Source of the DNA: a virus
Taxonomy: Duplodnaviria > Heunggongvirae > Uroviricota > Caudoviricetes
Strand: one strand, 5' to 3'
DNA: 4,095 nucleotides
IMG/VR virus record: IMGVR_UViG_2671180294_000008
The translations under genes were made by a program, and so were the position numbers. Below, one piece after another: positions 2,553 to 4,095 of the stretch. Position 1 is the stretch's first letter. Each line of letters begins with the position of its first letter. Below the pieces are notes generated by a model, which worked only from the letters and a program-made list of their open reading frames with translations, searched no databases and was not told the DNA's origin.

Positions 2553-2928
2553 TATTCAGCAGGTTATGGAACGGTGGGGGGCTTGGGCTGCAAACACTCA
2601 TGAAGATGTATCCTGGGCGTCGATCGCTGCTGGTTTTAAAGGGTTAATTCCGTCGAAAGTGAAATCACGCCCTCAGTGTTCTGATGATGATGCAATGATA
2701 ATTTGTGGCTGTATGGCCCGGTTGAACAAGAAAAATCAGGATTTGCACGATTTGCTGGTGGATTATTACGTAGGTGGAATGACTTTTATGAGTCTGGCAC
2801 GGAAACATGGGTGTTCGGATACCTGTATTGGCAAGCGCCTGCAGAAAGCGGAAGGGGTTATTGATGGCATGTTGATGATGCTTGATATCCGGCTGGAGAT
2901 GGACAGATACGTAGAACGAATTATGTAG
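2542..2928 (+). CDS. Q-type late-gene antiterminator, compact about 128-aa Cys-rich family (resembles the short Q of E. coli cryptic prophages, e.g. QuuD-like)
   Basis: ORF ends 2928 immediately upstream of a promoter-like element, the canonical Q/pR' arrangement. Product [17 protein letters not shown]... contains C-x8-CGC and GCSDTC cysteine clusters (putative Zn site). ATG 2542 preferred over the track's 2521 because AGGTGA (2531-2536) lies 5 nt upstream; this gives an 11-nt overlap with the rusA stop. Family assignment is from memory of similar short prophage Q proteins, not a search. Confidence 0.72.
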
Positions 2929-2932
2929 GTGC

Positions 2933-2962
2933 TTGACCAGACACATTGTCCGGGGCTATATT
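2933..2962 (+). promoter_or_regulatory. Sigma70-type promoter, candidate late promoter pR' (Q-utilisation region)
   Basis: -35 TTGACC (2933-2938), 18-nt spacer, -10 TATATT (2957-2962), starting 5 nt after the Q stop codon. Predicted TSS about 2969. Confidence 0.5.
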
Positions 2963-3023
2963 CCTCACGCGCCAGCAAAATCTGGCGTCGGGATTGGAAC
3001 CCCGGATAGAGACCGCGACAGAC

Positions 3024-3048
3024 ACACGCCGCGAGCGTGTTTTTTATT
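3024..3048 (+). terminator. Intrinsic terminator, candidate tR' (ends a roughly 75-80 nt pR' leader RNA)
   Basis: Stem ACACGC (3024-3029) / GCGTGT (3035-3040), 5-nt loop CGCGA, followed by TTTTTATT (3041-3048). Confidence 0.5.
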
Positions 3049-3173
3049 GTCGTATGCACGCGCACATCTGAATTATGGTGGGGCGCATGGGGGAGCTGAA
3101 AAGCTCGCCGGTCGGTTTCCCGGTAGTTCCAACCCTGTGCGTCTCACCACCCGATGATTGGAACCTGACGGTG

Positions 3174-3202
3174 TTGACAGTTTCAGGTTTGCAGTTTACA
3201 TT
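3174..3202 (+). promoter_or_regulatory. Sigma70-like promoter candidate upstream of the ORF6N gene
   Basis: Perfect -35 TTGACA (3174-3179), 17-nt spacer, -10 TACATT (3197-3202; 4/6 to consensus, with A2 and T6 conserved). Confidence 0.4.
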
Positions 3203-3237
3203 TCCCCGCGGTGCTCAAAACACCTCGAAAGCGGTAT

Positions 3238-3265
3238 CCACACCCGATAGCCATGTGGTTTTTTT
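3238..3265 (+). terminator. Weak hairpin plus T7 tract (possible attenuator or leader terminator)
   Basis: CCACA (3238-3242) / TGTGG (3254-3258) with an 11-nt loop, followed by TTTTTTT (3259-3265). Stem is short and the loop large, so terminator activity is uncertain. Confidence 0.3.
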
Positions 3266-3408
3266 GTGTCCAGAATTCTTGGTTTATGACCGGGTGTGCG
3301 GCTAATACAATACCAGCAATGGAAATACGCCCGCCGACTTTCGACGGTTTTGAGCGCCCGGTCACCCTCTCAAAAGGGGTAAATCAAAATATTCGAAAGG
3401 ACATGTCT

Positions 3409-3972
3409 ATGAATCGCACGTCTATTGAAAAACTCCCGTCACTTACGCATAACCATCTTCCTGTCATGACAACAGAGCTGCTGGCTGATTTGTACGGAAC
3501 AGAGCGCCAGCGTTTGACAAACAATTTCAATCGAAACAAAGAACGGTTTATAGAAGGTAAACATTTTTTCCTGATAGAAGGTGATGCGTTACGAGAGTTG
3601 AAGAACGAAAACTCTTTAAGAGTTTCTGTGAAAATTGCCCGTAACGTTCGCTCCCTCATCCTCTGGACAGAACGTGGCGCAGCCCGTCACGCCAAAATGC
3701 TCGAAACCGATCAGGCGTGGGAAGTGTTCGAAAAACTGGAAGACTGTTATTTCAACCAGAAACAGCCACCAGCGGCACAAAACACATCTATCGAAAATGA
3801 TGGATGCGCATTACTGAGCCACTTCGATAAACACGGTCAGGTTGAGTTCACGGAAAAGGTACCCGCCGATGCGATGGTATGTACTCTGGAACGGTTTAAA
3901 TTTTATCTGGAGCAACACGGGTGGATCGTTGCCCGTAAAGAGCAACTGGTGGAGCGGTTGATGCGGTTTTAA
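3409..3972 (+). CDS. ORF6N-domain (KilA-N-related, antirepressor-like) protein with uncharacterised C-terminal half; moron in the Q-to-lysis position
   Basis: ATG 3409 has AAGGA (3397-3401) 7 nt upstream; the track's start at 3211 and the in-frame ATG 3403 lack a usable SD. The N-terminal roughly 95 aa show the ORF6N pattern LADLYG..(x)..NFNRNKERFIEGKHFF.L.G..L..(x)..LWTERGA..AKML..D.AW. Stop TAA 3970-3972. Domain call is by eye. Confidence 0.68.
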   Translation: MNRTSIEKLPSLTHNHLPVMTTELLADLYGTERQRLTNNFNRNKERFIEGKHFFLIEGDALRELKNENSLRVSVKIARNVRSLILWTERGAARHAKMLETDQAWEVFEKLEDCYFNQKQPPAAQNTSIENDGCALLSHFDKHGQVEFTEKVPADAMVCTLERFKFYLEQHGWIVARKEQLVERLMRF

Positions 3973-4047
3973 AAATTTTTTCCGAAAACTTTACGATCGT
4001 AAAAAGTTGAATATCCTGTTAAGAGTGGTTACTACGCCACACAGCTT

Positions 4048-4073
4048 AAACCCGCCGATGAGCGGGTTTTTTT
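4048..4073 (+). terminator. Strong intrinsic (Rho-independent) terminator
   Basis: AAA-CCCGC (4048-4055) / GCGGG (4062-4066) GC stem with 6-nt loop CGATGA, followed by T7 (4067-4073); 76 nt downstream of the ORF6N stop. Confidence 0.75.
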
Positions 4074-4095
4074 ATACCTGAAAAACGGCACAGGA

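Follow-up and report, generated by a model that had tools for sequence, protein, structure and literature searches.

A 4,095-nucleotide (nt) stretch of DNA from a virus of the Caudoviricetes (IMG/VR record IMGVR_UViG_2671180294_000008; the whole of this stretch is called the window here) carries, at positions 3174–3972 of the plus strand, a unit that is probably a portable antisense lock on an antirepressor gene. The unit, cassette 2 in the following, resembles the c4 and IsrK systems and has the RNA sRNA-Xcc1 (Xcc1 below) as its core; most likely, it keeps the antirepressor gene silent. It is a new structural form of antisense-RNA control of phage antirepressors, on an RNA family of open function. 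A sequence-only reading had taken the region for an autonomous moron, a non-essential gene with its own promoter, long leader and terminator, and was right only in part. The gene, the promoter-like site, the leader hairpin with its T7 tract and the 3′ terminator were all found where that reading had placed them, and so was the position between Q and the lysis genes, with Q upstream and tRNA genes, holin, lysozyme and Rz downstream in the source chromosomes. The host-conversion role was not supported: the gene is an antirepressor homologue (49% identity to AnrP; PHROG annotation), and its leader resembles a c4/IsrK-style lock. The elements of cassette 2, whose coordinates were checked by hand on the sequence, are as follows.

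3174–3202, +, promoter: TTGACA 3174–3179, 17-nt spacer, TACATT 3197–3202; predicted start G3210
3210–3265, +, short leader RNA of about 56 nt (sequence reading, nhmmer profile, covariation, spacing)
3210–3213 / 3221–3224, +, 5′ hairpin GGUG/CACC of the leader RNA
3214–3220, +, site a1, CUCAAAA, in the loop of the leader 5′ hairpin
3225–3231, +, site b1, UCGAAAG, in the leader RNA
3238–3265, +, leader terminator: stem CCACA 3238–3242 / UGUGG 3254–3258, 11-nt loop, U7 3259–3265 (sequence reading)
3288–3371, +, sRNA-Xcc1: Rfam RF02221, 77.4 bits (gathering score 53), model positions 1–87 of 87
3338–3344, +, site b′, CUUUCGA, in the Xcc1 hairpin-2 loop
3348–3354, +, site a′, UUUUGAG, in the Xcc1 3′ junction
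3369–3375 / 3384–3390, +, site a2, CUCAAAA / UCAAAAU, in the target region 3369–3401 over the translation start
3393–3399, +, site b2, UCGAAAG, overlapping the Shine-Dalgarno sequence AAGGA at 3397–3401
3409–3972, +, ORF6N antirepressor gene, 187 amino acids (aa): Pfam PF10543, E 8.8e-21; PHROG anti-repressor, E 4e-85

An Rfam scan, which the sequence-only reading had proposed for the leader together with folding and covariance analysis across relatives, returned IsrK, c4-a1b1, C4 and sRNA-Xcc1 within 2956–3371, all above their gathering scores. Half of the leader, and the stretch immediately before it, belong to curated RNA families (IsrK, C4 and sRNA-Xcc1), which that reading had missed. The Xcc1 element comprises a closing stem, two hairpins and a CACCC tail. 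It shares its strand with the ORF6N gene and ends 38 nt ahead of the start codon, as an antisense RNA inside the leader of the operon that it would control, and the window holds no open reading frame (ORF) between the two. Sites a1 and b1 match a′ and b′, which likewise match a2 and b2. The downstream duplex, 3338–3353 with 3384–3399, has 7 + 7 base pairs (bp) around a 2-nt internal loop (−21.5 kcal/mol), and the best duplex of the Xcc1 antisense zone with the leader RNA reaches −36.3 kcal/mol.

To place these matches in context, Xcc1 loci were gathered from viral contigs with a core sequence pattern, giving 89 non-redundant loci; all 15 family loci tested scored above the gathering score of RF02221. 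For the b sites, we took the longest hairpin-2 word with a reverse complement both upstream and downstream, at a threshold of at least 6 nt. Such three-way matches were present in 74% of cognate and 5% of non-cognate sets (89 loci, with 73 distinct b words among them), and three-way matches of the a sites in 66% and 15% respectively. The covariation can be seen by eye in three relatives that switch all three b sites together (UCGAAAG/CUUUCGA, UCAGUAG/CUACUGA and CAAGUAG/CUACUUG). Cognate duplexes were also stronger than non-cognate ones, both at the translation start (−19.0 versus −13.8 kcal/mol, p = 4e-15) and in the leader (−24.6 versus −16.4 kcal/mol, p = 4e-23), the leader duplex being the stronger of the two in 47 of 56 loci. 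In a MAFFT alignment of 30 cassettes, which was not fitted to structure, 76.8% of cells were paired compared with 69.2% in shuffles (0 of 500 reached that value), and covariation was 0.254 compared with 0.149, with its peak at slide 0; pair counts revealed compensatory changes in the a1:a′ helix too. The b2 site of family loci ends a median of 9 nt upstream of the start codon. The sequence-only suggestion of a riboregulator in the leader is supported by comparison.

An antisense RNA in the leader is an arrangement shared by 62 cassettes with a readable downstream gene in this set of about 90 loci. By Pfam, their cargo comprises Rha (11), P22_AR_N (10), KilA-N (10), AntA (9), ORF6N (9) and Bro-N (8) domains, so that antirepressor-type N-terminal domains account for 57 of the 62 domain matches; judged by these domains, the genes downstream of the cassettes are almost always of antirepressor type. 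The ORF6N gene of the window fits this pattern. Its product is, by homology, a phage antirepressor: it is 49% identical to AnrP (STM2616) of Gifsy-1, likewise 187 aa long, and AnrP induces prophage Gifsy-1 (PMC4825925). With AnrP and the PHROG anti-repressor family as its relatives, the unit has the antirepressor cargo of c4-type systems, by homology only. The likely start is ATG 3409, 7 nt after the Shine-Dalgarno sequence; the in-frame ATG at 3403 is too near that sequence, and a start at 3409 was called in 37 source contigs. We rejected an N-terminal extension from GTG 3211, because 3409 is the start both in homologues and in gene calls, Escherichia coli EC12 has a closed frame there and the region is conserved as RNA. 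The identical protein occurs in contigs from 3,937 collection blocks and is encoded on many enterobacterial chromosomes of 4.8–5.0 Mb that are rich in insertion sequences (IS). A scan of genome contigs for the gene yielded distant relatives only (≤ 63%), the representative genome of the source species being without the prophage.

The own promoter claimed by the sequence-only reading and its leader hairpin gain their significance from comparison with relatives, each being weak alone. The promoter matches the consensus at 10 of 12 positions in the promoter scan. Of 72 related loci, 42 have a sigma-70-like pair of hexamers in the 60 nt before a1, compared with 3 of 144 control segments; the −10 element of the pair ends 12–13 nt ahead of a1, a spacing also seen in the window. 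Both hexamers are kept in EC12, phage Nil2 and two further loci (L075 and L101), with differing spacers, and a block of homology to 163 E. coli genomes runs from the predicted start at 3210 to 3392, just before the variable b2. As for the hairpin, a T-run stands at a fixed 28 nt (interquartile range 27–29) past b1 in 65 of 77 related loci, and the stem carries compensatory changes at three of five pairs. Of the roles that had been considered for it, comparison supports the terminator role, with a distinct short RNA, about 56 nt long, ending there.

An nhmmer profile of 39 related leaders matches window positions 3210–3263 (E 6.8e-10), and of its 110 matches in 1.6 Mb, 104 precede a same-strand Xcc1 core by 20–200 nt, a test that is partly circular as the training sequences were included in the searched set. 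The Rfam scan of the window yielded no family covering the leader RNA. RNAalifold on a MAFFT alignment of leader RNAs returned no consensus structure, owing to register shifts in the weak hairpins, and explicit pair counts and the nhmmer profile were used in its place. The terminator loop (3243–3250) contains a motif, CCCG(U/A)(C/U)AG, that is strongly conserved across subfamilies with different stems; it stands outside the proposed model and could be a recognition site for a protein or an RNase. Two further pairings were discarded. In the first, the conserved GCGG that follows b1 would pair as an anti-terminator with the terminator's 5′ strand, but subfamilies with other stems show no covariation for it. 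The second, an 8-bp match of the terminator loop (3239–3246) to the Xcc1 closing stem (3291–3298) in the minimum free energy (MFE) fold, is unconserved in other loci, and we take it as incidental.

We propose the following scheme, in which promoter firing, terminator action, Xcc1 processing and the antirepressor activity of the ORF6N protein are all predictions. Transcription would start at about G3210 from the unit's own sigma-70 promoter, and the weak terminator at 3238–3265 would end most transcripts, yielding an RNA of about 56 nt that exposes a1 and b1. Read-through from this promoter, and from an IsrK promoter further upstream, would carry Xcc1 (3288–3371), probably to be set free as a stable RNA about 85 nt long. 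Its b′ (hairpin-2 loop) and a′ (3′ junction) would pair with a2/b2 at 3384–3399, cover the Shine-Dalgarno sequence and block ORF6N translation. The short leader RNA matches these two segments over a longer stretch and more strongly, and would serve as a decoy; the balance between it and Xcc1 would decide whether the antirepressor is made. The antirepressor, once made, would inactivate a prophage repressor. The Gifsy-1 experiments, the P1 c4 paradigm and the 88-nt Xcc1 of Xanthomonas, where Northern blots and end mapping revealed a discrete RNA (PMC2996969), are our basis for inferring that the promoter is active, that Xcc1 is released and in which direction regulation runs. In most of 102 loci the closing stem is followed by an (R)CC(A/C) tail, which together with the c4-like 5′ flank (UUAUG) suggests that Xcc1 may be processed much as c4 is.

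Several points weigh against this scheme. The cassette-2 promoter is not above chance when taken alone, as the window has two such sites and shuffles are expected to have 3.9. The leader terminator is weak, with a 5-bp stem and an 11-nt loop, and the 59-nt RNA folds no better than shuffles (z = +1.1). The a2/b2 matches are only 7 + 7 nt long, and a set of viral contigs collected by pattern is biased toward phage contexts. Sequence would not decide the assumed direction, in which Xcc1 represses and the leader RNA activates. Xcc1 gave no match to the C4 covariance model over 3288–3371 even at E = 10, so that we do not file it as C4, and its likeness to c4 need not reflect homology; the variable site has also changed places, as Xcc1 has it in a hairpin loop and C4 in the junction. 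Downstream of the Xcc1 copies published from Xanthomonas integrons and Xylella tandem arrays there may be no antirepressor gene, and the host prophage is full of IS elements and may be inactive.

The immunity RNAs of P4 and N15 act through premature transcription termination. By the same route as the P4 CI RNA or N15 CA RNA, Xcc1 from earlier transcripts could pair with nascent a1/b1 and promote termination at 3238–3265; a1/b1 would then be the main target and not a decoy, pairing over the ribosome-binding site would play a secondary or back-up part, and immunity would come from premature termination. This is the chief rival reading, and we consider it unlikely. Such control would suit the stronger pairing of Xcc1 with a1/b1 (47 of 56 loci) and the fixed 28 nt between a1/b1 and the T-run, but an anti-terminator that co-varies is missing among the loci compared, the GCGG after b1 failing to track the stem in CCAAC/GUUGG subfamilies, and termination alone does not explain the fixed-distance overlap of b2 with the Shine-Dalgarno sequence in most loci. 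The N15 and P4 RNAs are, as Xcc1 would be, processed leader RNAs that pair with flanking sites and control an anti-immunity or replication operon; they differ in RNA family, and in the window the downstream target overlaps the Shine-Dalgarno sequence. By Rfam, the N15 anti-immunity RNA region is of the C4/IsrK type, which speaks for termination control and led us to reject Xcc1 as the N15 CA RNA; the possibility is also discussed for STnc1160 of Gifsy-1 (PMC4825925). The antisense lock and termination control may both operate.

Could the leader act as a switch in cis only, with a1b1:a′b′ and a′b′:a2b2 as alternative folds of one molecule and no short RNAs acting in trans? The MFE fold of 3209–3425 does form the a1b1:a′b′ helix, pairing 3210–3234 with 3336–3358 and leaving the Shine-Dalgarno sequence free, and the cis conformations A and B matter in Gifsy-1 (PMC4825925). 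We nevertheless hold this to be quite improbable, as the conserved terminator between a1/b1 and Xcc1 would part the partners in most transcripts, Xcc1 is a discrete 88-nt RNA in Xanthomonas (PMC2996969) and activation in Gifsy-1 requires the short IsrK in trans (PMC4825925).

The proposed lock is followed by a late promoter, which corrects the map of the window. The features that bear on this are the following.

2521–2928, +, Q antiterminator gene, a context gene: Pfam PF06530, E 2.7e-52
3990–4017, +, PR′ homologue: TTTACG 3990–3995, 16-nt spacer, TATCCT 4012–4017; start about A4024; right boundary, outside the unit
4048–4076, +, strong hairpin and U-run, the first terminator after the gene, in the PR′-proximal segment (+25 to +53)

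Positions 3990–4078 are 85% identical to a stretch of a Shiga toxin 1 (Stx1) phage that begins 13 nt before the Q stop codon, and by homology they comprise PR′ itself and, of the StxS precursor transcribed from it, the first ∼54 nt. In Stx phage, the distance from PR′ to tR′ is 258 nt and an RNase E site, GU|AUU, lies at +173 (PMC7547250). We derived the PR′ start from these numbers and the sequence: both distances fit the Stx1 phage only if PR′ starts at position 1535 of its contig (L233), with −10 TATCAT and −35 TTTACG. The window thus shares with the Stx-phage PR′/StxS region (Sy et al., 2020; PMC7547250) the segment 3990–4078 and a Q that is 78% identical, and differs in that PR′ lies 1,061 bp from Q and the rest of the 258-nt StxS region falls beyond the window. 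Because the PR′ homologue comes only after the ORF6N gene, that gene does not ride in the late operon, and the co-transcription from pR′ under Q that the sequence-only reading had expected is lost; the promoter just after Q (2933–2962) is the IsrK promoter. A second expression mode would nevertheless exist, through read-through from the IsrK promoter; the late lytic mode via pR′ falls away. The 3′ hairpin (4048–4069, U-run to 4076) has an 8-bp stem (−12 kcal/mol, z = −3.4) and probably also stops the antirepressor mRNA. The Stx-phage transcript is reported to reach tR′ at +258, so that an early hairpin at +25 to +53 must be read through or otherwise used.

A phage moron is a promoter–gene–terminator insertion, a concept that came from comparisons of HK97 and HK022. 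In the window, the 1,061-bp block 2929–3989 is, by comparison with the Stx1 phage, an insertion that separates an Stx-phage-type Q gene from the PR′ homologue, two elements contiguous in that phage, and it appears to hold two tandem antisense cassettes. A host-benefit accessory gene with a constitutive promoter, expressed from the repressed prophage behind an ordinary attenuator, would agree with this placement and with the presence of a promoter and a downstream terminator. We regard it as very improbable, since the gene is an antirepressor homologue and its leader contains an RNA from a curated family of antisense type, whose co-varying targets cover the ribosome-binding site; leaders of this kind front six antirepressor domain families. 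The block is like morons in lying, with its own predicted promoter, between elements adjacent in related phages; it is unlike them in carrying phage regulatory machinery under a putative RNA lock and in its composition, which is not atypical (GC content 0.42–0.56, close to the flanks). As to the bracketing of the gene by promoter and terminator, the putative promoter is conserved in the family and the terminator at 4048–4076 belongs to the PR′-proximal segment. Only in its placement does the block resemble a moron.

The left junction of the block is the 3′ end of the Q gene. The window Q is 78% identical to the Stx1-phage Q over residues 5–133 and its C-terminus is 22 aa shorter; protein comparison found no relatedness to the Gifsy-1 Q. 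We observed that the junction falls inside the 3′ end of Q (window 2900–2928, compared with 1450–1513 of the Stx1-phage contig), and that in Stx phages this part of Q also contains the −35 element of PR′.

Upstream of the proposed Xcc1 lock lies cassette 1 (2933–3164), which is, by Rfam and sequence comparison, the known IsrK/C4 module of Gifsy-1, N15 and P1 minus its own antirepressor gene.

2933–2962, +, IsrK promoter: TTGACC, 18-nt spacer, TATATT; 10 of 12 matches (promoter scan); start G2969
2956–3008, +, c4-a1b1: RF03163, 50.1 bits, above the gathering score
2969–3045, +, IsrK-type short RNA: RF01394, 77.5 bits (gathering score 50), with its own terminator at 3024–3045 (terminator scan)
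3071–3154, +, C4 antisense RNA: RF01695, 71 bits (gathering score 45); b′ GUUCCAA at 3126–3132
3075–3305, +, counterpart of Gifsy-1 orf45: ATGs at 3075 and 3087, 76 aa (ORF list)
3156–3164, +, b2 target of C4: GAUUGGAAC (read from sequence)

The Rfam isrK model begins at 2969, coinciding with the predicted IsrK start, and the order isrK then C4 is the same in Gifsy-1 and N15 (Rfam), with which cassette 1 thus belongs. Its a1 and b1 sites lie within the IsrK-type RNA, b1 being GAUUGGAAC at 2992–3000, and the C4 RNA folds stably (MFE −44.9 kcal/mol, z = −5.0). Canonical C4 cassettes continue ...GGTGGTGATAGTTTAGAAACC...ATG with b′ and b2 co-varying. In most phages that carry an ORF6N gene, the C4 module leads directly into the gene (...GATTGGAAC CTGACGGTGGTGATAGTTTAGAAACC...ATG), and there too the C4 junction segment and its b2 target co-vary. 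In the window, the tail of cassette 1 ends near 3190 with the antirepressor gene absent, and blastn homology to the C4 module stops at 3183. Against E. coli genomes, 3046–3410 falls into two independent homology blocks, 3046–3183 and 3210–3404. Phage Nil2 has isrK, C4, orf57 and antA followed by a second unit with an annotated promoter, Xcc1 and antB, and a further locus (L190) has the same tandem order; in the window and five E. coli genomes (∼87% identity), the first antirepressor gene is absent and the cassette 1 tail is fused to cassette 2 near 3190. The −35 TTGACA of cassette 2 is two substitutions away from the canonical C4-cassette tail GGTGAT. In the GenBank record of Nil2, ant is called 'disrupted by a putative bacterial retrotransposon', and a promoter is annotated 'by homology' where the cassette-2 promoter lies. 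On the sequence evidence, this 'disruption' is two complete antirepressor cassettes in tandem, one of C4 type and one of Xcc1 type. The tandem as mere debris of a deletion that removed the first antirepressor gene, with an accidental promoter-like site and no regulation left, would suit the lost cargo of cassette 1, the IS elements and the aberrantly long orf45 counterpart, but is highly improbable: five E. coli genomes retain the fusion at only ∼87% identity, with hexamers, a/b sites and gene intact, and contigs from 3,937 collection blocks encode the very same ORF6N protein.

The experimental precedent is Gifsy-1, where a promoter just after Q makes IsrK, a short terminated RNA, and also drives isrK-orf45-anrP (PMC4825925). 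Read-through gives a bicistronic orf45-anrP mRNA that contains a C4-like RNA and anrP and is translationally silent, and the short IsrK activates it in trans (Hershko-Shalev et al., 2016; PMC4825925). The window resembles this system in its position after Q and in having a promoter, a short terminated RNA with target-like sites, an embedded antisense-type RNA and a 187-aa ORF6N antirepressor; in both, the short RNA acts, or in the window would act, on the read-through mRNA, and cassette 1 is the Gifsy-1 module by Rfam. It differs in that its C4 module lacks a gene of its own and the gene is fronted by a second cassette with Xcc1 in place of C4, in that the targets lie directly on the gene's Shine-Dalgarno sequence, and in its unrelated Q protein. 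Nor does the window have the orf45-type coupling (AUGA overlap), as the orf45 counterpart ends 104 nt before the ATG and its length is unconserved. The ATGs of this counterpart are at +107 and +119 from the IsrK start G2969, as in Gifsy-1 orf45 (numbering of PMC4825925); it starts inside the C4 RNA, crosses the second promoter and the leader RNA and stops inside Xcc1. In EC12 it is 44 aa long and ends before cassette 2, and the extension is probably fortuitous. For the same reason we rejected ribosomes on the extended ORF, unfolding the terminator and Xcc1, as a conserved mechanism. An isrJ downstream of the gene, as in Gifsy-1, was not found in the window by Rfam, and alignment gave no real similarity.

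The second precedent is the immI operon of P1 and P7, reportedly described, with its c4 antisense RNA, icd and ant, by Citron and Schuster in 1990 and 1992. The c4 RNA is cut from a precursor by RNase P and, in trans, blocks translation and downstream transcription. The window shares with immI an antisense RNA inside the leader of the operon to be controlled, pairing through two short segments, duplicate targets (a1 b1 and a2 b2) of which the downstream one lies over the ribosome-binding site, an antirepressor as cargo and site sequences that set specificity. The closing stem with two hairpins, the UUAUG 5′ flank and the CACC(C) 3′ tail are also alike. It is unlike immI in that Xcc1 does not match the C4 covariance model, in the lack of an icd-like ORF and in the terminator between a1/b1 and the antisense RNA; moreover, Xcc1 has its variable specificity site in the hairpin-2 loop and its semi-conserved site in the junction, the reverse of C4. 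By these comparisons, Xcc1 would work like a c4 antisense RNA but outside the C4 family.

sRNA-Xcc1 itself is said to have been introduced by Chen et al. in 2011 from Xanthomonas campestris. The element at 3288–3371 is a full-length member of that family, which in its published form is treated as a trans-acting, virulence-linked small RNA with predicted distant targets; the candidate partners found here appear within 150 nt on either side. With somewhat less assurance than for the window itself, indeed at slightly below even chances, we extend the scheme to the family: sRNA-Xcc1 might primarily be not a free-standing, trans-acting virulence small RNA but the antisense element at the centre of a modular and widespread lock on antirepressors (a promoter, a decoy leader with terminator, Xcc1 and ribosome-binding-site targets), with the hairpin-2 loop as a freely reprogrammable address. 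It would then be a second c4-like lineage, independent of C4 or very diverged from it, and the leader a new RNA family. A literature search on Xcc1 with antirepressor, c4 or ORF6N found no flanking co-varying targets, leader RNA or antirepressor link, with subscription journals thinly covered and a prior description possible. One preprint mentions that APSE phages have Xcc1 ahead of an ORF6N gene, and proposes no mechanism. In Xylella fastidiosa, one genomic island holds five Xcc1 copies with a period of ∼381 nt (Table 4 of PMC12189769), and Xcc1, isrK and C4 are adjacent in another strain (PMC12189769). Tandem Xcc1 cassettes too tight for a full antirepressor gene would not fit a simple lock model.

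If the extended scheme is true, each phage holds a private, orthogonal RNA key for its anti-immunity gene, and the many co-varying address sites form a natural library of orthogonal RNA locks, relevant to hetero-immunity and synthetic biology. The c4/IsrK logic of an antisense RNA with duplicated targets would have a second structural solution, found with six antirepressor domain families. It would also suggest a concrete job for sRNA-Xcc1, which is annotated in many genomes and has so far been read via genome-wide target prediction. Antirepressors decide whether a prophage and its neighbours wake, a decision that matters for the release of toxin and the transfer of genes in Shigella and Shiga-toxin E. 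coli.

The ORF list and Pfam identify the window as part of a lambdoid prophage. The remaining entries of its gene list are given below.

138–1529, DnaB-type helicase gene
between the helicase gene and rusA, 85-aa ORF
2181–2552, rusA

A 226-nt direct repeat (1473–1698 and 1871–2096, 89% identical) surrounds an N-run at 1701–1865 (165 N), so that the last part of the helicase gene and the beginning of the 85-aa ORF appear twice. As the source chromosomes carry a single copy, in which the helicase stop overlaps the ORF start, repeat and N-run look like a masked stretch or an assembly artefact and not like biology. ARAGORN found no tRNA genes in 2940–3160. Downstream, the source chromosomes have four tRNA genes, followed by holin, lysozyme, Rz and terminase, the lysis genes being ∼1.2 kb on. 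In one source genome (L023), the tRNA cluster (Met-CAT, Arg-TCT, Thr-TGT and Gly-TCC) occupies 8754–9064, ∼700 nt past the end of the window; it sits between the PR′-like segment and the holin gene and resembles the tRNA genes downstream of PR′ in Stx phages.

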